From the NCBI GenBank assembly GCA_963664825.1, contig OY761614.1:1344001-1408000 (forward strand): a DNA stretch of 64,000 nt. The letters run 5' to 3'. Every line of letters starts with the position of its first letter. The first letter of the stretch is position 1. This DNA comes from an uncultured Holophaga sp. GTDB lineage: Bacteria > Acidobacteriota > Holophagae > Holophagales > Holophagaceae. Below, one piece after another: positions 11,006-21,873 of the stretch. Made by a program: the position numbers and the translations under genes. Under the pieces are notes generated by a model. That model had not been told where the DNA came from and made no database searches. It saw only the letters and a program-made list of their open reading frames with translations.

Positions 11006-11359
11006 ATGCGTGGGTACGCACCCATCCTGCTCCTGATCCTTGTGGCCGTAGCACTGCCAGTCATCATCTGCAATTTGTCCTGGCTGCTCCGACCCCACTG
11101 GCCCACAGCGGCCAAATATTCAACTTATGAATGCGGTATCACCGCCGTCACCGAGGCCCGGGAGCAGTTCTCGGTGCGGTACTACCTCGTGGCCGTCATG
11201 TTCCTCATCTTCGATGTGGAGACCGTGTTCCTCATGCCCTGGGCCATCCAGATGAAGGAACTGGCCACCTTCGGATTGATCGAGATCGGCATCTTCCTGT
11301 TCCTGCTGCTCTTCGGATACGGCTACATCTGGTCCAAGGGAGCCCTCACATGGGAGTGA
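11006..11359 (+). CDS. nuoA: NADH-quinone oxidoreductase subunit A
   Basis: YECG, FLIFDVE, KGALTWE. Confidence 0.96.
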
Positions 11360-11393
11360 GTCTGATGCAGGAACGGACCCCAGGAGGTGTCGC

Positions 11394-11926
<533 letters not shown>

Positions 11927-11927
<1 letters not shown>

Positions 11928-12787
11928 TGGCGGACGCCAATATCCCCGAGAGCGCCCAGGGTCCCTACGTCTACGACTACAAGACCGCCCCGAACCGCCA
12001 GATCATCCTGCCCCAGACGGTGCCCCTGCCGGGGTTCAAGGCCTACGCCGCCGAGCAGGAGGCCGAGACCCAGGCTGTTGAAGCCAAGTGGCAGAAGCAG
12101 CTCGCGGATTTCGAGGCCGCCAAGCTCCAGGCCGAAGCCGCAGGCAAGGAAGCCCCCAAGGCTCCCCTGAAGGCCGCGCCCAAGCAGGGCGATGGCGACC
12201 TGAAGTTCCCGGCGCCCACCGAGGCTGCCGATCCCGATCTGCTGCGCCTTATGGAACTCCTGGGGGACCGGGTCGAGGAAGCCTTCGAACAGGGCCCCGA
12301 ACACACCTGCCAAGTCGGCAAGGACCACATCCTGGAGGCCCTGCGGCTCTGCCGGGAGGATGCCGCCCTGAAGTTCGAGATGCTGGCCGACGAAACGGCC
12401 ACCCACTATCCCGCGGCCGAGGGCTTCGCCTTCAGCGTGGTCTATCACCTGACGAGCATCTGCCGCCGCAAGCGCCTGCGCCTGCGCATCCTGGTGCCCG
12501 AAGGCTTCGAACCCGAGAGCGCCACCCAGGTCTACCCTTCGGCCAACTGGATGGAGCGCGAGATCTGGGATATGCAGGGCATCCGCTTCGCGCACCACCC
12601 GGACATGACCCGCATCCTCTGTTCCGAGGACTGGGAGGGCCACGCCCTGCGCAAGGATTATCCGGTGGTGGGCTGGGGCCAGCGCGATATCGATTTCCGC
12701 GAGGACCGCAGCGGCATGCTCAACCGCATCGCCCTGGAAAAGGCCGGCCAGCTCGGCATCAACCTCAAGCGCCCCACGGCGGAGTGA
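11927..12787 (+). CDS. nuoC: NADH-quinone oxidoreductase subunit C with long N-terminal extension
   Basis: ANWMEREIWDMQGIRF.HHPDMTRIL...GHALRKDYP; TGATG overlap with nuoB. Confidence 0.93.
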
Positions 12788-12790
12788 CCG

Positions 12791-13891
12791 ATGTTCAAGA
12801 ACGAGGAGATGGAAATCAACCTGGGCCCGCAGCACCCGTCCACCCATGGCGTGCTCCGGGTCAAGGTGCGGCTCGAGGGCGAGACGGTCAAGTACTGCCG
12901 TCCCATGATCGGCTACCTGCATCGGGGCGTGGAGAAGATCTGCGAGAACAAGACCTTCTTCCAGGGCCAGGTCTGGACCGATCGCATGGACTACACCTCC
13001 GCCATCGCCAATAACCTGGGCTGGGCGGAAGCCAACGAGAAGCTCTTCGGCATCACCGTTCCCCGCCGGGCCCAGTACATCCGCACGCTGCTGGCCGAGT
13101 GCAACCGCATTTCGAGCCACCTGATCTGGCTGGGCACCCACGCCATGGATATCGGCGCGCTGACGGTCTTCCTCTACGCCTTCCGGGAACGCGAAGACAT
13201 CCTCGATATGTTCGAGGCCTACTGCGGCAGCCGCCTCACCACCACGGCCCTCCGCATCGGCGGCCTCCCGGCGGACCTGCCTGCGGGCTTCGAAGCCAAG
13301 GTCCGGAAGTTCCTGGCCAAGTTCCCGGCCTGCCTCGATGAGTACGAAGGCCTCCTCACGGAGAACCGCATCTGGAAGAAGCGCACCCTCGGCGTGGCCA
13401 AGCTCAATGCCGAGGACGCCATCGCCCTGGGCGTGACCGGGCCCCTGCTCCGCGCCGCGGGCGTGCCCTACGATATCCGCAAGGCCTTCCCCTACGCGGC
13501 CTACGCCGAGATGGATTTCGAGATCCCCACCCGCACCGAGGCCGATACCTACGCCCGTTACATGGTGCGCCTGGCGGAGATGCGCCAGAGCGCCCGCATC
13601 ATCCAGCAGTGCCTGGACGGCCTGCCCGAGGGCCCCATCATGGCCAAGATCCCCAAGATCCTGCGCTCCGAGGTCAACGAGGTCTACCACCCCACCGAGG
13701 CCCCCAAGGGCGAGATCGGCTACTACCTGGTGGGGGAGAAGGGTTCCACGACCCCCTACCGCTTCCACGTCCGAGCTCCGGGCTTCGTCAATCTCCAGTC
13801 CCTGCCCAAGATGGCCGAGGGTGGCCTGATCGCCGATATCATCGCGGCCATCGGCACCCTGGACGTGGTGCTCGGCGAGATCGATCGCTGA
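12791..13891 (+). CDS. nuoD: NADH-quinone oxidoreductase subunit D
   Basis: NLGPQHPSTHGVLR, GYLHRGVEK, DVVLGEIDR; no NiFe CxxC motifs. Confidence 0.97.
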   Translation: MFKNEEMEINLGPQHPSTHGVLRVKVRLEGETVKYCRPMIGYLHRGVEKICENKTFFQGQVWTDRMDYTSAIANNLGWAEANEKLFGITVPRRAQYIRTLLAECNRISSHLIWLGTHAMDIGALTVFLYAFREREDILDMFEAYCGSRLTTTALRIGGLPADLPAGFEAKVRKFLAKFPACLDEYEGLLTENRIWKKRTLGVAKLNAEDAIALGVTGPLLRAAGVPYDIRKAFPYAAYAEMDFEIPTRTEADTYARYMVRLAEMRQSARIIQQCLDGLPEGPIMAKIPKILRSEVNEVYHPTEAPKGEIGYYLVGEKGSTTPYRFHVRAPGFVNLQSLPKMAEGGLIADIIAAIGTLDVVLGEIDR

Positions 13892-13905
13892 AGAGGAACT
13901 GATTC

Positions 13906-15060
13906 ATGCCCACACCGACCCTGACACAGTCCCTCCTGATCGCCCTCATCCAGGCCATCCTGGTGGTGATCTTCATCTTCGTGGTGGTGCCCCTCACCAT
14001 CTTCGCCGAGCGCAAGGTGCTCGGCCATATCCAGGATCGCCTGGGCTCCACCCGCATCGCCGGCCATCTCACGGGCCTGACGGGTTGGATGAACCGCGGC
14101 ATGTGGAAGATGGGCAAGGTGCCCGTGCTCTCCTACTGGCGCGGGCTGCCTGGCCTGGTGGGCGATATCCTCAAGATGCTCCTCAAGGAAGACATCCTCC
14201 CGACGAAATCCGACAAGTTCGTGTTCTGGATCGCACCGGCCCTGAGCTTCGTGGCTTCCGTTGTCGTCTTTGCCGCCATCAGCTTCGTGCCCGGAACCTT
14301 CTTCACCCTGCCGTCCTGGGTGCCCCTCATCGGCGGCCTGCCGGTGACCGGCGCCATCGCCGATATCAACGTGGGCCTGCTCTGGATCCTGGGAGTGGCC
14401 ACCGTCGGCGTCTACGGCATCGTGCTGGCGGGCTGGGCCTCCAATTCCAAATACCCCCTCCTGGGAGGCCTGCGCAGCGGCGCCCAGATCGTGAGCTACG
14501 AAGTGCCCTTGGCCCTCAGTCTCCTGGCGCCGGTGCTGATGTCGGGCAGCCTCCAGTTCAGCGAACTCTCCCGAAGCATGGCGGTGGGCCAGCCCTTCTG
14601 GGCGGTGGTGCCCCAGTTCCTGGGCTTCTTCCTGTACCTCACATGCGGCTTCGCGGAGACGAACCGCCTGCCCTTCGATATGCCCGAGGCCGAAAATGAA
14701 CTGGTGGCGGGCTTCCACACCGAATATTCCGGCATGAAGTTCGGATTCTTCTACCTGGCAGAATACATCAACATGACCGTGGTGGCCGCGCTGGCCTCGG
14801 CCTTCTTCCTGGGGGGGCCCTGGCTCCTGCCCTTCGGCCTCCAGGGCGTCCTGATCCCCTCGACTCTGCCCTTCATCGGCCAACCTCACGCCATCTTTTT
14901 CGTCGCGAAGATCGTATTCCTCCTCTTCACCTACATCTGGGTCCGCGGCACGATTCCCCGCTACCGCTACGACCAGATCATGGCGGTGGCCTGGAAATAC
15001 CTGATCCCGGTGGCCCTCGTCAACCTGCTCCTGGCGGCAGCCGTCCGCTACTGCGCCTAG
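13906..15060 (+). CDS. nuoH: NADH-quinone oxidoreductase subunit H
   Basis: ERKVLGHIQDR, AETNRLPFDMPEAENELVAG, PRYRYDQ. Confidence 0.96.
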   Translation: MPTPTLTQSLLIALIQAILVVIFIFVVVPLTIFAERKVLGHIQDRLGSTRIAGHLTGLTGWMNRGMWKMGKVPVLSYWRGLPGLVGDILKMLLKEDILPTKSDKFVFWIAPALSFVASVVVFAAISFVPGTFFTLPSWVPLIGGLPVTGAIADINVGLLWILGVATVGVYGIVLAGWASNSKYPLLGGLRSGAQIVSYEVPLALSLLAPVLMSGSLQFSELSRSMAVGQPFWAVVPQFLGFFLYLTCGFAETNRLPFDMPEAENELVAGFHTEYSGMKFGFFYLAEYINMTVVAALASAFFLGGPWLLPFGLQGVLIPSTLPFIGQPHAIFFVAKIVFLLFTYIWVRGTIPRYRYDQIMAVAWKYLIPVALVNLLLAAAVRYCA

Positions 15061-15069
15061 GGGGGAAGC

Positions 15070-15579
15070 ATGAACAAGTTCCTGAAGACACTCATCCCCT
15101 TCGATATTGCCAAGGGCCTGAAGACCACCGGCACGCACTTCGCGAAGGTCTTCTTCACGGCCAATCGCCGGAAGGTGCCCTTCCACGTGGTTTCCGAGTA
15201 CCCGGAGGTGCCCGCCAAGGTGGAGCCCCGCTTCCGCGGGCGCCTCCAGTTGCTGAGGGACGAGGCCGGCGAGGTCAAGTGCGTGTGCTGCATGTCCTGC
15301 GTGAAGATCTGCCCCACCCAGGTGATCACCATCGAGGCCACCAAGAAGGAGGGCCGCAAGGCCAAGCTGCCCGCGCGCTACGACTTCGAGATGGAACGCT
15401 GCATCTTCTGCGGTTTCTGCGTGGAGAGCTGCCCCTTCGACGCCATCATCCTCAACGATCAATTCGAACTGGCCGTCTACGACCGCGAGGAACTGGCCCT
15501 GGGTGTGGACGGGCAGTACCAGAACATGTTCAGCCCCTCCCCGGTGGCCAAGTTCTCCGTTGCAGAACCAGAGGATTGA
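15070..15579 (+). CDS. nuoI: NADH-quinone oxidoreductase subunit I
   Basis: Two CxxCxxCxxxCP 4Fe-4S motifs; YPE...PRFRG. Confidence 0.95.
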   Translation: MNKFLKTLIPFDIAKGLKTTGTHFAKVFFTANRRKVPFHVVSEYPEVPAKVEPRFRGRLQLLRDEAGEVKCVCCMSCVKICPTQVITIEATKKEGRKAKLPARYDFEMERCIFCGFCVESCPFDAIILNDQFELAVYDREELALGVDGQYQNMFSPSPVAKFSVAEPED

Positions 15580-15589
15580 GGGAAAAACC

Positions 15590-16138
15590 ATGGAACAACT
15601 GCTCTCAAAGCTCGGACAGAACCTCTTCCTGATCTTCGGCCTCATCGCCCTGGTGGGCGCGGGGATCATGATCTTTGCCAAGAACGCCATTCATAGCGTC
15701 ATGGGCTTCCTGCTGGCCATGCTGGCCGTCTCCGGTTGCTACCTCAGCTTCGGCGCCGAATTCCTGGGCGTGGCCCAGCTGCTCGTCTACGCCGGAGGCA
15801 TCGTGGTGCTCTTCCTCTTCGTGGTGATGCTGGTGGAAATGAGCAAGGCCAAGGAGAAGGGAGTCTTCCAACGCCAGACTCCCTTTGCCCTTGTCCTGGT
15901 GCTGGCCGGTGCCGTGGCCTTCGTGGGCGTCTTCTGGAGGACCCTCTTCGGACCCAGTGCGCCGGTATCGCTCACCCTTTCACCGGGACTGGTGGAACAG
16001 GGAGAAAAGCTCGGCAATGCCCAGTTGGTGAGCCGCGGCCTCTTTGCGGAGAATCTCCTGCCCTTCGAGATCCTCTCGGTGATCCTCCTGGTGGCCCTGG
16101 TGGGCGCCGTGGTCTTGGCTAAAACGGAGCGTGTGTGA
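15590..16138 (+). CDS. nuoJ: NADH-quinone oxidoreductase subunit J
   Basis: AEFLGVAQLLVYAGGIVVLFLFVVML, LPFEILSVILLVALVGA. Confidence 0.95.
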   Translation: MEQLLSKLGQNLFLIFGLIALVGAGIMIFAKNAIHSVMGFLLAMLAVSGCYLSFGAEFLGVAQLLVYAGGIVVLFLFVVMLVEMSKAKEKGVFQRQTPFALVLVLAGAVAFVGVFWRTLFGPSAPVSLTLSPGLVEQGEKLGNAQLVSRGLFAENLLPFEILSVILLVALVGAVVLAKTERV

Positions 16139-16245
16139 TGCGAAACATCCGATCAGCCACGGGCTCGGATTTCGGACAGGCCTTGCATGTTGAAGTCTCG
16201 TGTATCCGCGCAGCGGATGCCGAGAGAACGGAGCGTGTGTGATGC
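16123..16245 (+). repeat. 85 bp insert between 19 bp perfect direct repeats of the nuoJ/nuoK junction; forms a 34 aa mini-ORF (16138..16242)
   Basis: aacggagcgtgtgtgatgc at 16123-16141 and 16227-16245; two internal hairpins. Confidence 0.85.
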
Positions 16246-16544
16246 CGGCGATGAACCAGGTTCTCCTCATCTCCTTCCTGCTCTTCTCGGTGGGTGTCGC
16301 CGGTGTGCTCATCCGGCGCAACGCGCTGATCATCCTCATGTGCGCCGAGCTCATGCTCAACGCCGCCAACATCAACCTCATCGCCTTCGCCCGTCACAGC
16401 GGCACCGTCGCCGGACAGGCCTTCGCGCTGATGGTGATGGGGCTGGCCGCGGCGGAAGTGGCCATCGGACTTGCCATCGTGGTCGCCCTCTACCGCAGGA
16501 AGAACACCATCGCCGTCGACGAGATCAATCTACTAAAGGGCTGA
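16242..16544 (+). CDS. nuoK: NADH-quinone oxidoreductase subunit K
   Basis: RRNALIILMCAELMLNA, AAAEVAIGLAI. Confidence 0.95.
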   Translation: MPAMNQVLLISFLLFSVGVAGVLIRRNALIILMCAELMLNAANINLIAFARHSGTVAGQAFALMVMGLAAAEVAIGLAIVVALYRRKNTIAVDEINLLKG

Positions 16545-16548
16545 AACA

Positions 16549-18753
16549 ATGCTAATGGAACCCGCAGCCAGCGCAGCCCTCTCCACCCCGGTTCCCGCCT
16601 CGGTGCTCTGGCTGATCCCCTTCCTGCCCCTCTTCGGCGCCCTGCTCAATGGCGCCTACGGGCTCTTCTGCAAGTCCACGGGCCGCAAGGCCCCCAGCAC
16701 CAAGCTGGTGGATTTCATCGCCCTGGGCTCGGTGGGCGTGGCCTTCCTGCTATCGATCACCTACTTCGTCACCCTGCTGGGCCAGAGCCCGGCCAACCGC
16801 TCCATCACCCAGTCCGTGTGGACCTGGATCGATCTGGGCGGCGCCCGGGTGATGGATGGCCTGGCCCGCAATACCGTGGCCTGGGCCTACAAGTTCGATA
16901 CCCTCTCGGGCGCCATGGCGCTGCTGGTGACCGGGGTGGGCTTCCTGATCCACCTGTTCTCCACGGGCTACATGCAGGAGGAACGCCAGGACGGCCGGTA
17001 CTATCGTTTCATGGCCTACATGAACCTCTTCGTGTTCTCCATGCTGAATCTGGTGCTGGGCGCCAATATCCTCATGATGTTCCTGGGCTGGGAGGGGGTG
17101 GGCCTCTGCTCCTACCTGCTCATCGGCTTCTACTTCGATAAGGAATTCGCCGCCACCGCCGGGAAGAAGGCCTTCGTCACCAACCGCATCGGCGACTTCG
17201 GCTTCATGCTGGGTTTCTTCCTGCTCTTCCAGATCTTCGGCAGCGTGGACTTCGACACCCTCATGGGCATGACACGCGCTGTCATGGCGCGGCCCGAGCT
17301 CACCATCTTCGGCGTGACCCACGCACCCACCTGGTGGTTCAACCTGGCCGGCATCGCCCTCTTCCTGGGGGCCTGCGGCAAGAGCGCCCAGATCCCCCTC
17401 TATGTCTGGCTGCCGGACGCCATGGCGGGGCCCACCCCCGTGAGCGCCCTCATCCACGCCGCCACCATGGTGACCTCCGGCCTCTACATGATCTGCCGGA
17501 TGAATTTCGTTTATGCCAACGCGCCATTGGCCCTCTCCATCGTGCTCTTCATCGGCGCCCTCACGGCGCTGGTGGCCGCCAGCATGGGCCTGGCCCAATA
17601 CGACATCAAGAAGGTGCTGGCCTATTCCACCGTCTCCCAGTTGGGCTTCATGTTCATGGGCATGGGCGCCGGAGCCTACACGGCCGGCATGTTCCACGTC
17701 TTCACCCATGCGTTTTTCAAGGCCGCCCTCTTCCTCGGCGCGGGCTCCGTGATCGTGGCCTGCCATCACGAGCAGGACATGCGCAATCTCGGGGGCCTCC
17801 GGTCGAAGATGCCCTGGACCTACGCCTCCATGCTGATTGCGACCCTGGCCATCGCGGGCATCTTCCCCTTCTCGGGCTTTTTCTCCAAGGACGAGATCCT
17901 CTGGAAGGTCTTCGAGGGCTGGCAGACGGGTGGCCACACCCTGAGCCTGGTGGCCTGGATCATGGGCATGGTGGCCGCCTTCATGACAGCCTTCTACATG
18001 GTCCGCCTGATGGTGATGACCTTCGGCGGAGAATACCGCGGCGCAGGCCTGGACCCCCACGGCCACACCGTGCCCACTGAGGCCCATTCCCACGGCCATG
18101 GCCCCCAGGAAGTGGTCTGGAACATGTGGGTGCCCGTCTTCATCCTGGCGATCCTGGCCCTGGTGGGCGGTTTCCTGAACATCCCCCACAGCCTGCACTG
18201 GATCGGTTCTTCTCACTTCAGCCAATGGCTGGCCCCCCTGCTCTACCAGAAGGAGGCCCTCCACGCTAGCCACGAGGCGGCCCCGGCCATCGAATACGGC
18301 CTCATGGCCTGGACCACCCTCATCTGGGCCCCGGGCGCCATGCTGCTGGCCTACCTGTTCTACGGCCTGGATCCTACCTGGGCCCGTCCCCGCGCCTTCG
18401 TCAAGGGCTTCCCCGGCCTCTTCCGCTGGGTCCACAACAAGTATTTCGTCGACGAGTTCTTTGAAATGGCCTTCATCGGCCCCTGCAAGCAGCTGGGAGC
18501 CCAGCTCTGGGCCTTCGATACCTGGGCGGTGGATGGCATGGTGAATGGCGCCGCCCGCTTCACCCTCATCTGGGCCCGCCTCAGCTTCTGGTTCGATTCG
18601 CATATCGTCGATGGCCTAGTGAACCTGGTGGCCTATTTGATCCAGCAGCTCTCCGGTGGCTTCCGCAAGCTCCAGAGCGGCCGCGTGCAGAACTACGCCT
18701 TCGTGATGTTCCTGGGCTTTTTGATCTTCGCGTTCTGGAAGTTCCTGGCCTGA
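16549..18753 (+). CDS. nuoL: NADH-quinone oxidoreductase subunit L
   Basis: GWEGVGLCSYLLIGF, GKSAQIPLYVWLPDAMAGPTPVSALIHAATMV, QSGRVQNY. Confidence 0.97.
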   Translation: MLMEPAASAALSTPVPASVLWLIPFLPLFGALLNGAYGLFCKSTGRKAPSTKLVDFIALGSVGVAFLLSITYFVTLLGQSPANRSITQSVWTWIDLGGARVMDGLARNTVAWAYKFDTLSGAMALLVTGVGFLIHLFSTGYMQEERQDGRYYRFMAYMNLFVFSMLNLVLGANILMMFLGWEGVGLCSYLLIGFYFDKEFAATAGKKAFVTNRIGDFGFMLGFFLLFQIFGSVDFDTLMGMTRAVMARPELTIFGVTHAPTWWFNLAGIALFLGACGKSAQIPLYVWLPDAMAGPTPVSALIHAATMVTSGLYMICRMNFVYANAPLALSIVLFIGALTALVAASMGLAQYDIKKVLAYSTVSQLGFMFMGMGAGAYTAGMFHVFTHAFFKAALFLGAGSVIVACHHEQDMRNLGGLRSKMPWTYASMLIATLAIAGIFPFSGFFSKDEILWKVFEGWQTGGHTLSLVAWIMGMVAAFMTAFYMVRLMVMTFGGEYRGAGLDPHGHTVPTEAHSHGHGPQEVVWNMWVPVFILAILALVGGFLNIPHSLHWIGSSHFSQWLAPLLYQKEALHASHEAAPAIEYGLMAWTTLIWAPGAMLLAYLFYGLDPTWARPRAFVKGFPGLFRWVHNKYFVDEFFEMAFIGPCKQLGAQLWAFDTWAVDGMVNGAARFTLIWARLSFWFDSHIVDGLVNLVAYLIQQLSGGFRKLQSGRVQNYAFVMFLGFLIFAFWKFLA

Positions 18754-18793
18754 GCCTGCCATTCCTTTTGCATTGATGTCCGCTGGAGTTGAT

Positions 18794-20404
18794 ATGAGTC
18801 CGACCCTGATCCCCTGGTTCAAAAACCTGCCGCTGTGGGTCACCTTCATCCCGCTGCTGAGCGCGCTGTGCCTGCTCTTCGTGCCCAAGGAGAAGCGCCG
18901 GGTCTTCGAACTCGGCGCCCTGGGCATTACCATCCTGGACTTCGCCCTCAGCGTGCCCCTCTGGTTCCAATACGACCGGGCCAATTCCGCCGTCCAGTGG
19001 CCTACCGTGATGGACTGGATCCCCAGTCTCGGGGTGCAATTCAATATCGGCATGGACGGCATCAGCCTGGTGCTCTTCCTGCTGACCACCTTCATCGGCT
19101 TCATCGCCGTATGGTCCTCCTTTAGCGCCATCCAGGAACGCCACAAGGAGTATTACATCTGGCTGTTGGTCATGCAGACCTCCATGCTGGGCGTCTTCAT
19201 CTGCCAGGACATGTTCCTCTTCTACCTGTTCTGGGAACTGATGCTGGTGCCAATGTACTTCCTCATCGCCATCTGGGGCGGCCCCCAGAAGCTCTACGCG
19301 GCCATCAAGCTCTTCCTCTACACCCTGGCCGGCTCCGTGCTGATGCTGGTGGGCATCCTGGCCATCTACTTCCTGCAGAAGAAGGCCGGGCTCACCCCCA
19401 GCTTCTCCATCGCCTCCTTCCAGGCCATGGCGCCCGTCATCGCCCAGCAGACCAAGAGCTTCCAGATCCTCTTGGCCCTGGCTCTGTTCGTGGGCTTCGC
19501 CATCAAGGTGCCCATGTTCCCCTTCCATACCTGGCTCCCGGACGCCCATGTGCAGGCGCCCACGGCCGGTTCGGTGATCCTGGCCGGTATTCTCCTGAAG
19601 ATGGGCACCTACGGCTTCGTGCGTTTCCTGCTGCCCATCCTGCCGGACGCCACCCGCATCCTGATGCCCTATCTGCTGACCCTCACCCTCATCGGCATCA
19701 TCTACGGCGCCCTGGTGGCCATGGTCCAGAAGGACATGAAGAAGCTCGTGGCCTACAGCTCCGTGAGCCATCTGGGCCTCTGCATGCTGGGCATCTTCGC
19801 CATGAATCCCAACGGGATCATGGGCGGCATGTTCCAGATGATCAATCACGGCATCTCCACTTCCGCGCTCTTCCTCATCGTCGGCATCGTCTACGAGCGC
19901 CGCCATACGCGCCTGATCGCCGACTTCGGCGGCCTGTCCAAGACCATGCCCGTCTACGCCACGATCTTCATGATCATGACCATGAGCTCCATCGGCCTGC
20001 CGGGCCTCAATGGCTTCATCGGCGAGGCCGCCATCCTCATGGGGGCCTTCCAGGTCCATCCCTGGTGGGCCGTGGCGGCCTGCAGCAGCCTGATCCTGGG
20101 TGCGGCCTACATGCTCTGGCTCTACCAGCGCGTCATGTTTGGGCCCATCAACCCAACTAATGAGCAGATGCCCGATCTCAAGGCCCGGGAGATCGCCTAC
20201 TTCGTGCCCCTGGTGGTGGCCGCCTTCTGGATTGGCCTCAATCCCACCCCCCTCATGAAGGTGCTCGACAAGCCCGTGGAGAAGCTCGTGCGCCAAGTGG
20301 ACCCCACCTACTACGAGGCCCAGGATCTGAGGGCTCGCCAGAAGGCCGCCGCCCGAATCGGCATGGCGGGCATGCCGGCTGAAGCAGCCCACGGAGGTCA
20401 CTGA
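18794..20404 (+). CDS. nuoM: NADH-quinone oxidoreductase subunit M
   Basis: FAIKVPMFPFHTWLPDAHVQAPT, LLKMGTYG, KKLVAYSSVSH. Confidence 0.97.
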   Translation: MSPTLIPWFKNLPLWVTFIPLLSALCLLFVPKEKRRVFELGALGITILDFALSVPLWFQYDRANSAVQWPTVMDWIPSLGVQFNIGMDGISLVLFLLTTFIGFIAVWSSFSAIQERHKEYYIWLLVMQTSMLGVFICQDMFLFYLFWELMLVPMYFLIAIWGGPQKLYAAIKLFLYTLAGSVLMLVGILAIYFLQKKAGLTPSFSIASFQAMAPVIAQQTKSFQILLALALFVGFAIKVPMFPFHTWLPDAHVQAPTAGSVILAGILLKMGTYGFVRFLLPILPDATRILMPYLLTLTLIGIIYGALVAMVQKDMKKLVAYSSVSHLGLCMLGIFAMNPNGIMGGMFQMINHGISTSALFLIVGIVYERRHTRLIADFGGLSKTMPVYATIFMIMTMSSIGLPGLNGFIGEAAILMGAFQVHPWWAVAACSSLILGAAYMLWLYQRVMFGPINPTNEQMPDLKAREIAYFVPLVVAAFWIGLNPTPLMKVLDKPVEKLVRQVDPTYYEAQDLRARQKAAARIGMAGMPAEAAHGGH

Positions 20405-21873
20405 TGCCCTTCGCCCAGAGCCTGCTGGAATCCCTCACTCGGGATCTCCCCTTCCTGTATGGGCCCCTCTTCCTGGTCCTGGCCGCCACGCTCATGCTCT
20501 GGCCCGGCGATCTTCTGGTCGGCAAGGACAATAAGCGCGTCTGGTCCGTGGTGGCCTTCCTGGTGCTGGTCTCCGGTGGCACGCTGGCCCTCCTGGCCCC
20601 TACGGGCACAGGGTTTGCCGGCATGTTCAAGGTGGATGGCCTCACCAAGGGCTTCCAGTTCCTCTGCGTGCTGGGGGGCCTCATCACGATCCTCCTGAGC
20701 CAACCCCAGCTCAACGCGCTTCGGGAGCAGACGGTCGAATACTACGCCCTGATCCTCTTCTCCATCAGCGGCATGATGCTGCTGGTGGGTGCGGCCGACC
20801 TGGTGTCGGTCTACTTCAGTCTCGAACTGATGGCCCTCTGCATCTACATCCTGGTGGCCTACCTGCGCACCCACGAACGCAGCATCGAAGCCGGCCTGAA
20901 GTACTTCCTGCTGGGGGCCTTCTCCAGCGGCATCCTCCTCTACGGCATCAGCCTCCTCTTCGGCGCCGCCGGTGGCACCACCACCAATCTGGCCGAGCTC
21001 AACGACAAGCTGGCCCTTGTGAGCCCCAATGGCAGCCTGATGGTCTTTGCGGGTGCCCTGATGGTGCTGGTGGGATTCGCCTTCAAGGTGGCCGCCGTGC
21101 CCTTCCACATGTGGAGCCCGGACGCCTACGAGGGCGCTCCCACCCCCATCACGGCCTTCATGTCCATGGCTCCCAAGGCCGCGGCCCTGGGCGCTTTCCT
21201 GCGCGTCTTCGGCACGGGCCTCCGGGGAGTATCGACGGAATGGGTCCTGCCCCTCTCCTTCATCGCCGGGGCCAGCATGATCCTGGGCAATGTGGCGGCC
21301 CTGCGCCAGCAGAGCTTGAAGCGCCTCCTGGCCTACAGCTCCATCGCCCACGTGGGCTACATGCTCCTGGGCGTGCTCAGCGGCGATGTGCAGGCCGGGG
21401 CCCAGGCCATCTGGCTCTACATGTTCACCTACCTGCTCATGCAGAGCGGCGCCTTCGCCGTGATCATCTACCTCCAGGGCAAGGGCGAAGGAGAGCGCAT
21501 CGACGATCTCCGGGGCCTCGCCAAGCGCCAGCCGGTGCTGGCCTTCGCCATGATGGTCTTCATGCTGAGCCTGGCGGGCATCCCGCCCCTGCTAGGATTC
21601 TTCAGCAAGTTCTACCTCTTCAAGCTGGCCATCGAGCAGGGCTATGTGACCCTCACGGTGCTTGCCCTCCTCACCAGCGCCATCGGCGCCTGGTACTACC
21701 TGAACGTCGTGGCCACGATGTATTTCAAGGAACCCGCTGAAGCCAAGGCTGATGCGAGACCCCTGAGCAAGACCTTCACCTTCATTCTCACCGTCTCTTG
21801 CGCCCTGATCCTGGTGGGTTCTCTCTTCGGGCGCCACCTCCTGGACTGGACGGCCAGGATCGTGCTGGGCTGA
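20404..21873 (+). CDS. nuoN: NADH-quinone oxidoreductase subunit N
   Basis: EAGLKYFLLG, FKVAAVPFHMWSPDAYEGAPTP, KRLLAYSSIAH, SLAGIPP. Confidence 0.97.
   Translation: MPFAQSLLESLTRDLPFLYGPLFLVLAATLMLWPGDLLVGKDNKRVWSVVAFLVLVSGGTLALLAPTGTGFAGMFKVDGLTKGFQFLCVLGGLITILLSQPQLNALREQTVEYYALILFSISGMMLLVGAADLVSVYFSLELMALCIYILVAYLRTHERSIEAGLKYFLLGAFSSGILLYGISLLFGAAGGTTTNLAELNDKLALVSPNGSLMVFAGALMVLVGFAFKVAAVPFHMWSPDAYEGAPTPITAFMSMAPKAAALGAFLRVFGTGLRGVSTEWVLPLSFIAGASMILGNVAALRQQSLKRLLAYSSIAHVGYMLLGVLSGDVQAGAQAIWLYMFTYLLMQSGAFAVIIYLQGKGEGERIDDLRGLAKRQPVLAFAMMVFMLSLAGIPPLLGFFSKFYLFKLAIEQGYVTLTVLALLTSAIGAWYYLNVVATMYFKEPAEAKADARPLSKTFTFILTVSCALILVGSLFGRHLLDWTARIVLG

Follow-up and report, generated by a model that had tools for sequence, protein, structure and literature searches.

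The junction between nuoJ and nuoK in this genome carries the same gene end twice, with a spacer and a hairpin between the two copies. What this DNA is, and how it can sit inside a coupled operon, are the questions analyzed here. A sequence-only reading had proposed a small non-autonomous element or an excision scar; the former is supported by empty sites and by a dispersed hairpin, whereas the excision-scar variant found no support. As described below, the insert is real and belongs to a family-wide class of cassettes without an enzyme of their own, for which genome comparisons give unusually good support to both the relay frame and gene-end replacement.

The repeated gene end at the nuoJ/nuoK junction

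The window, that is, the whole stretch of 64,000 nucleotides analyzed, corresponds to C1:1344001-1408000 of a 3.47-Mb genome in one contig (G000). The names nuoJ, nuoK and those of other genes are the ones we presume from protein sequence and operon position. The features of the locus are as follows.

15590 to 16138, forward strand: nuoJ-like gene, 182 aa; its final five codons and stop lie within the left copy
16121 to 16141, forward strand: left copy of the gene end (working nuoJ 3′ end with the TGATG stop/start); the unit starts at the A of 16121
16138 to 16242, forward strand: relay frame of 34 codons; ATG over the nuoJ stop, TGA over the nuoK start
16142 to 16194, forward strand: spacer U, site-specific; its length is fixed among the seven filled genomes
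16195 to 16224, forward strand: hairpin H, a 30-nt bulged stem-loop with a GNA loop; its 3′ foot is the unit end
16225 to 16245, forward strand: right copy of the gene end (displaced or overwritten), containing the relay-frame stop and the nuoK start
16242 to 16544, forward strand: nuoK-like gene, intact, 100 aa

An exact direct repeat of 19 nt (16123-16141 and 16227-16245) is present at a start-to-start distance of 104, with 85 nt between the copies, just as the sequence-only reading had it; the repeat unit proper starts at 16121/16225 (AAA versus AGA), immediately 3′ of the hairpin. The 34-codon frame at 16138-16242, noticed by the same reading, is likewise open and is translated as MRNIRSATGSDFGQALHVEVSCIRAADAERTERV*. 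Its ATG shares bases with the nuoJ TGA (16136-16138), and its TGA overlaps the nuoK ATG at 16242. The layout of the insert is a copy of the nuoJ end, a spacer of 54 nt, and the 30-nt hairpin H. As a side observation, the nuo operon of the window (11006-21873) runs A-B-C-D and then H-N, and nuoE, F, and G frames are absent between nuoD and nuoH (presumed names).

The fold of the 85-nt insert was better than those of 200 of 200 shuffles as single-stranded DNA (z −2.97), and z was −2.10 as RNA. Two hairpins had been claimed for it. The one at 16204-16218 is present, although it is only the tip of the 30-nt bulged hairpin at 16195-16224. The other, within the spacer, was rejected as a conserved feature, since its RNA z scores ranged from −0.91 to +1.81 in seven orthologous spacers and its DNA z was below −2 in only two of the seven, with differing folds. 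Rfam gave no match over the insert and two weak matches outside it (E 2.3 and 4.3). No inverted repeat joined both insert ends, and the hairpin stands at one end only, indicating that the insert is not a MITE, which would have terminal inverted repeats and a short target duplication.

An assembly artifact or a chance repeat was considered, because tandem repeats are prone to mis-assembly and several relatives' copies lie at contig ends. However, a unitig of run X1, which may be the source sample of the genome, covers 16069-16800 with 0 differences at depth 25, and a unitig of run X3, from another study, covers 16069-16633 with 0 differences at depth 2. Thus, the read support demanded for the duplication comes from contigs of two studies. 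Diverged versions also occupy the same nuoJ/nuoK junction in six other genomes. These results refute an artifact or a chance repeat, the probability of which we regard as practically nil. In RNA run X6, pieces of a relative's nuoJ and nuoK were present and the insert was uncovered. Excision joints were absent from the contigs of four runs.

Distribution of the insert among relatives

The nuoJ/nuoK junction was resolved at 42 of 43 loci, which are the best matches to a query containing the insert, so that filled loci are enriched among them: seven were filled, 34 had a single copy, and one had a short scar-like remnant. The empty sites with one copy that had been expected were found. The filled genomes are G000, G006, G007, G021, G080, G086, and G087, and among 133 family genomes only these seven gave a match across the insert. 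All seven show a period of 104 and a frame from the nuoJ stop to the nuoK start; judged from the sequences, this frame is open and would be coupled at both ends in each of them, which agrees with the earlier suggestion that the element fits a coupled operon. A second nuoJ-type junction (L278) is likewise open and coupled. The open frame thus occurs in 8/8 nuoJ-type junctions, against shuffle expectations of 0.38-0.53 each (product 0.0014, the rows being not fully independent), and the claim of an excess over chance held. The remnant in G022 (L017) consists of a 16-nt gap with a five-codon frame, MRGEA*, coupled at both ends and without a hairpin; it looks like a shrunken cassette that kept the relay.

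The spacers of the seven filled genomes were identical at 15-36 of 54 positions, their length being fixed, and a codon-position signal was absent (0.405/0.421/0.437). No trace of a decayed nuoK start was detectable in the spacer (15/54 in the window and 8-17/54 in 5/5 tested). Such divergent spacers, without codon-position signal or nuoK likeness, indicate that the frame is kept and the peptide is not; no sign of selection on the relay peptide was seen in the seven filled nuoJ/nuoK units.

In a host tree from which the insert was excluded, starred branches pair three of the filled genomes with an empty sister (G007/G008, G087/G058, and G086/G074). The G086 cassette is more similar to the one in G080 (63/84) than to the one in its clade-mate G087 (47/84), so that the horizontal signal at nuoJ/nuoK is one trio of 84-nt sequences. 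On the other hand, spacer identity within the window's genus (30-31/54) is higher than that between genera, which fits plain descent with losses and speaks against homing. The empty junction had been pictured as TGATG. This is the usual empty form in genus g5, whereas the window's genus has TGA-C-ATG (5/5); the TGATG in both copies is, therefore, likelier to be cassette-derived than native.

The hairpin family and its two forms

The search of the 85-nt insert against its own genome, which had been suggested, showed that the last 30 nt recur elsewhere, while the rest was without match. A profile built from 15 copies detected 17 distinct hairpins in G000 at E ≤ 0.006, and in all 17 a direct repeat begins at the 3′ foot (period 101-110 in 16 and 67 in one); as the seeds were partly picked for having direct repeats, a pattern search provides the unbiased count. 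The pattern matched in 20/24 genomes of the same family (f1) and in 0/8 of family f2, as would be expected of a short, dispersed, lineage-specific hairpin of the REP type. Eight matches in 2/8 genomes of family f3 were chance-like, and the reversed-pattern control gave one match in 41 genomes. A direct repeat right after H was present in 98 of 192 pattern-found copies with enough flank, compared with 29 of 2000 random positions. The period was 99-110 in 82 of these 98, with clustering at 101-108. Among the remaining copies, 69/192 are of a 42-nt form and 25/192 are of neither form, several of them with weaker repeats; these copy counts are not independent, since they include related genomes and MITE copies.

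The outer arms of H are fixed. Its inner three pairs vary, yet pairing is retained in 111, 111, and 107 of the 112 distinct copies, with co-variation of the inner stem (GC 57/CG 51; CG 53/GC 53) at positions that were free in the search pattern. Loops of the cGNAg type are very stable in single-stranded DNA. A scan for GNA-triloop hairpins between direct repeats had been suggested, and GNA is common (131/192 H copies) but not required. Genomes carrying H have 1-24 copies, mostly single, in either orientation relative to transcription; H also occurs behind terminator-like hairpins (rpsT), inside MITEs, and inside coding sequence. Two exact patterns gave 0 matches in viral contigs, and a replication-fork strand bias is unproven (11 versus 5, with the origin placed from GC skew only). 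H has no GTAG foot. The base before GTC is C in 35% and T in 65% of the 69 42-nt units, and mostly G or A in the 82 long units. Sequence logos also displayed a junction motif of about CCRNS before the cut and AR after it, inflated by MITE copies. The unit lengths 42, 104, 157, and 210 seem to lie near multiples of the helical turn.

The long form (~104 bp) can be written x [A U H] A′ y, where A is the gene end; 99% of 73 first units start with A. The 88 first units with a period of 99-110 fall into 26 site families, common to several genera, including the polA start (13), the rpsT end (12), the cydB, uppS, manC, and purE starts, and the nuoJ and nadB ends. The gene body is always on the A side, such that A spans the stop or, on the other strand, the start. 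The target genes have no common function. Arrays of 2-4 units also occur, the last unit often having a partial or decayed H; a four-unit array lies at C1:1219608-1220023 of G000.

The short form consists of a 12-nt leader plus H (42 nt). Comparison of a filled and an empty copy of one MITE showed a difference of exactly 42 nt and no duplication. Two such units lie in tandem at L207, one lies in frame in an otherwise intact 681-codon aspS-like frame (L128), and metagenome contigs contained 28 further units, most of them in MITE-like or low-complexity repeats. Since the 42-nt leader motif is missing from the 104-bp units, the hairpin alone links the two forms. In addition, one or two 42-nt units occupy fixed positions in each of 2-3 MITE families from this bacterial family (L047, L050, L096, L103, L239, and many metagenome loci, L374-L401), indicating that H spreads as a passenger too.

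Several other repeats were observed. Longer units, with periods of 152-170 and 214-228, are present at other gene ends, e.g., a biotin-carrier-like C-terminus (L222, L232, L216, L268, L060, L194, and L210). A second small hairpin insert of ~36 nt stands before the same short motif in an IS91-like transposase gene of G000 (C1 ~830945-830980, L156), and also in frame in pnp-like S1-domain sequences of two other genomes (L126 ~2043-2078; L182), where a 42-nt H unit is found ~50 nt upstream of it. Another dispersed repeat family has a GTAG end, head-to-tail units with a period of ~109-130, and variable middles (G000 C1: 90693-90840, 339362-339600, 1574288-1574420, 2151109, and 2470719). A period-61 array on the same contig gave ~110 exact repeats at 61 and its multiples, as expected of a CRISPR array. 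Two contigs of G017 (L093 and L085) share the rpsT end, one leading to a unit and a displaced copy and the other to a unit and 240 nt without match in G000; the pair may reflect an insert of larger size, rearrangement at H, or mis-joining.

A putative relay frame and its coupling to the following gene

At gene-start sites, the frame from the displaced start continues across both H and the spacer, and in 36 of 41 cases its stop falls between −5 and +8 of the real start; an additional site was without a matching start, and two families of unclear orientation were excluded from this count. Shuffling of the spacer gave an expectation of 27.3/41, and 12.0 when the frame was also random. With one member per family, the P values were 0.08 (spacer shuffled) and 0.0017 (frame random). 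The modest excess over the frame-fixed shuffle indicates that most of the coupling signal is unit length modulo 3 plus a stop placed at the start. At rpsT, where the target is a gene end with a terminator-like hairpin, a frame reaching the second stop was observed in only 2/12.

An internal frame coupled to its neighbors, the arrangement known from MIRUs, is thus found in 7/7 nuoJ/nuoK units and at 36/41 gene-start sites. Ribosomes may, on this sequence evidence, be relayed through the frame to the next gene, and our best reading is that the cassette is tolerated through this coupling.

Replacement of gene ends

If the right copy were a neutral spare, with neutral changes in one copy and silent changes in the other, our own calculation gives an expected pN/pS of ~0.55. 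Over 655 codons, left and right copies differed with pS 0.246 and pN 0.047, i.e., a pN/pS of 0.19, the changes being mostly silent; three rows below 60% identity were dropped from this set, and L193 and three families were left out. The observed value, compared with the neutral one, indicates that each of the two copies has functioned as a gene end. For rpsT, whose right copy lies behind the terminator-like hairpin, pS was 0.139 and pN 0.008. Each right copy also resembles its own left partner more than it resembles those found in other genomes (0.5 versus 2.1 mismatches for nuoJ and 4.5 versus 8.3 for polA).

The polA start was compared in the best 30 of 49 loci matched in 61 genomes (16 filled and 14 unfilled). 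Among these 30, codon 2 is GCT in 14/16 filled versus 0/14 unfilled loci, a TGA across codons 2-3 occurs in 16/16 versus 3/14, and the upstream frame ends at +8, on this codon 2-3 TGA, in 14/14 testable filled loci. The working start of polA is cassette-borne. Accordingly, the incoming DNA supplies the working gene end, as in integrative elements, on the evidence of polA codon 2 and of the pN/pS of 0.19. The sequence-only reading had missed that the cassette supplies a working gene end, and also that its "duplication" differs from a plain target-site duplication.

Immediately after H, positions 2-3 match the left copy poorly (48% and 71%), whereas positions 4-22 match at 79-99% with a three-base rhythm. 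Such a profile appears more compatible with crossing over within A than with strand transfer precisely at the foot of the hairpin.

Search for a mobilizing enzyme

A fixed end at the hairpin foot, together with 42-nt inserts made without homology, requires an enzyme. Candidates were searched from a loose first look, covering 1-41 genomes each, such that a divergent enzyme could escape. Y1_Tnp (PF01797) and RAYT were absent from G000, G006, and G007, and the RAYT/TnpA-REP model (NF047646) was over its cut-off in 0/16 f1 genomes including G000. IS200-like TnpA occurs in 4/15 same-family relatives with no H beside it, and no H was present at nine Y1 loci scanned. H as a REP with a cognate flanked TnpA-REP was rejected on the NF047646 and Y1-locus results. 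Reverse transcriptase (PF00078), which a diversity-generating retroelement would show, was found in 0/6 genomes (G000 and five relatives); differences between left and right copies, read by eye, include C/G and T/A and are mostly silent. IS110 (PF02371) is present in G000 and in one of five relatives. IS91-type transposases (PF04986) occur in 11/41 genomes and are commonest in G016 (no pattern match) and G020 (one pattern match). TnpB (PF07282) was absent in 5/5 genomes.

G000 has 14 tyrosine recombinases (PF00589, NCBIfam typing), including an integron integrase, and by coordinates none of these 14 genes adjoins an H copy. No mobile-element protein recurred beside H when the neighborhoods were read by eye; the ORF clusters were MITE shadow frames and housekeeping neighbors. 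The integron integrase (TIGR02249) was detected in 10/25 genomes and in 9/15 same-family relatives. A chromosomal integron lies at C1 2532000-2539900 of G000, with an integrase over the TIGR02249 cut-off, at least five attC sites of 110-123 nt, and an IS110-type transposase nearby. The core motifs of attC are RYYYAAC...GTTRRRY. H as an integron attC was rejected, because the integron's own sites are unlike it and H is without the core motifs. Given that no mover, no H-adjacent enzyme, and no excision joint was found, we infer, rather than observe, movement, circles, and the ribosome relay.

Competing explanations

We consider it probable that the insert is a non-autonomous, site-specific mobile 104-bp cassette of the form [gene end A][spacer U][hairpin H], homing to one gene end. 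The cassette would enter an empty allele within the last (or first) 20-70 bases of a gene, its own A completing the gene and the old end being pushed behind H. The crossover would probably fall within A, because the first one or two bases after H are free of coding constraint. Loss would occur by deletion between the two A copies, and expansion would yield short arrays. Each cassette lineage would keep to one gene end, giving at least 26 lineages in addition to a 42-nt form that would need no homology and leave no duplication on insertion. At operon junctions and gene starts, the surviving cassettes would be those whose length and sequence form a relay frame coupled to the next start, and through such coupling the hairpin is proposed not to silence downstream genes. 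H itself is the likely mobility signal, a single-stranded DNA hairpin at whose 3′ foot a trans-acting enzyme may cut or join the DNA. Such a cycle of entry, expansion, and loss would explain most simply why spacer lineages are old while gene-end pairs look young, why presence is patchy, and why arrays occur. A more far-reaching version is possible, although we hold it only tentatively: an undescribed minimal class of homing DNA, in which one single-stranded hairpin may recruit any gene end as a homology arm, and in which site-specific ~104-bp cassettes and an arm-less 42-nt form may pass from strain to strain as small circles, overwrite the outermost codons of essential genes, and build a relay frame that keeps them harmless. 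The mover would then be a host-encoded or trans-acting enzyme outside the Y1, Y2, RT, IS110, TnpB, and integron families.

The cassettes could also be old passive insertions, in which a REP-like hairpin arrived with a target duplication of ~74 bp, insertions were retained only where they spanned a gene end, the spacer represents what is left of the duplication after decay, gene conversion maintains the likeness of the two ends, and empty alleles arose by repeated precise losses, without homing. Young-looking copies without a difference along their full ~73 nt and with a partial H at the end (L049 and L106), an identity that declines gradually with distance from H, and spacers that track host relatedness in the window's genus agree with this account, which moreover makes an enzyme unnecessary today. 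However, a neutral right copy conflicts with the observed pN/pS, the nuoJ spacer carries no trace of the nuoK start in any of the five tested, the polA start of filled genomes is a separate allele lineage common to several genera, and a single origin requires many independent precise losses on the tree. We consequently regard passive insertion as unlikely. Selection could instead have kept the insert as a domesticated regulatory module, whose relay frame and hairpin tune the translation or mRNA decay of nuoK-N, polA, and cydB. The fixed length (104 in 7/7 nuoJ units and 103 in 13/13 polA units) with a frame never broken there, the strongly conserved hairpin, and the five-codon coupled frame that G022 retains after losing H are all in line with such a role. 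Nevertheless, the module is missing from 35/42 nuoJ/nuoK junctions, the closest relatives included; H occurs in either orientation, behind rpsT terminator-like hairpins, in MITEs, and in coding sequence; and the lack of a common target function, of a spacer codon-position signal, and of an Rfam match over the insert also makes regulation as the primary explanation very unlikely.

Integrative islands work by re-supplying a gene end. The cassettes could, therefore, be scars of larger integrative elements that targeted and re-supplied gene ends and left one attachment arm with a recombinase-binding hairpin; contig L093 of G017, where the gene end and H are followed by unrelated DNA, and the 14 tyrosine recombinases of G000, integron integrase included, would suit such an origin. 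In contrast, no cargo-bearing version was seen among the ~190 copies with flanks, whose periods cluster at 101-108, none of the recombinase genes adjoins H, the integron attC sites are ordinary ones of 110-123 nt, and viral contigs gave no H with the two exact patterns. We give this origin little credence and favor the mobile, homing cassette.

Comparison with known systems

In integrative elements and homing-endonuclease ORFs, insertion occurs in a gene end, the incoming DNA completes the gene, and the displaced end remains as a diverged direct repeat. The cassette resembles them in its insertion inside a gene end, its own copy completing the gene, and the displaced end being kept. It differs from them in having no integrase, nuclease, or cargo, in its size of ~104 bp, and in at least 26 target genes under one hairpin. 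There are only 85 nt between the repeats, and no cargo-bearing copy was recognized among 192, which separates it from integrative elements proper.

MIRUs target start codons and contain a frame coupled to the gene, an arrangement presumed to limit harm (PMC12548453); they have 4-nt direct repeats (PMC3184786), and their mobility is called apparent (PMC12548453). Like MIRUs, the cassette is small, seemingly mobile, and without an enzyme of its own; it lies at gene boundaries, contains an inverted repeat rich in G+C, expands in tandem, and has a coupled internal frame (PMC12548453, PMC3184786). However, MIRUs as described there have 4-nt repeats, a common body, and start-codon insertion, whereas the cassette has a coding gene-end repeat of 19-70 nt and is cut inside the gene (PMC12548453, PMC3184786). 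Furthermore, only the 30-nt hairpin is shared among cassettes, each site has its own spacer lineage, and both orientations occur. The cassette thus works like a MIRU, but classification as one was rejected, since its repeat of 19-70 nt starts inside the coding end in place of tetranucleotide repeats and start-codon insertion.

REPs may occur in frame within genes and in repeated arrays that include flanking DNA, and those of the CGTC type lack a dedicated transposase (PMC3733652). TnpA-REP cuts single-stranded DNA near bulged hairpins (PMC8266576, PMC6006769). H resembles REPs and BIMEs of the GTAG and CGTC types in being a 20-40-nt bulged hairpin, lineage-specific and strand-polar, with in-frame copies in tRNA synthetase genes and tandem reiteration with flanks, and it shares with CGTC REPs the lack of a known transposase (PMC3733652). 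By contrast with the REPs described there, H has no GTAG foot, shows CGTC/TGTC only in the 42-nt form, and pairs over 13 bp around a 3-nt loop (8-9 bp and 4-5 nt in REPs). It also differs in its 1-24 copies per genome, fixed unit ends, and gene-end replacement arms, and no RAYT is present in the H-richest genomes. The 42-nt form alone resembles single-stranded DNA elements of the IS200/IS605 type, with no target duplication (as the filled and empty MITE copies show), a short preferred motif, and an end at the foot of a GNA-loop hairpin; it differs from the published elements in having one hairpin rather than two ends, and in conserved target bases 3′ of the element (PMC6006769).

Searches of the open literature, apart from the supplementary repeat tables of PMC3733652 and PMC6006769, yielded no account of this element or of cassettes that lack an enzyme and carry gene-end arms. 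The spread of enzyme-less repeats, MIRUs and CGTC-type REPs among them, still awaits an explanation (PMC3733652, PMC12548453). In the cassette family, the ends are sharp, alleles occur both filled and empty, units come in two sizes, the 30-nt signal is defined, and some hosts are cultured (Geothrix species), so that circles, binding proteins, and coupling are directly testable. It would represent selfish DNA that rewrites the termini, start codons, and ribosome-binding regions of essential genes, and it would provide a natural series of independent solutions to translational coupling. If MIRUs share the mechanism, the cultured host family would be a place to find the enzyme. In summary, the element combines a MIRU-like coupling, a REP-like hairpin, and an arm like that of integrative elements, and it departs from each of these systems in a defining property.
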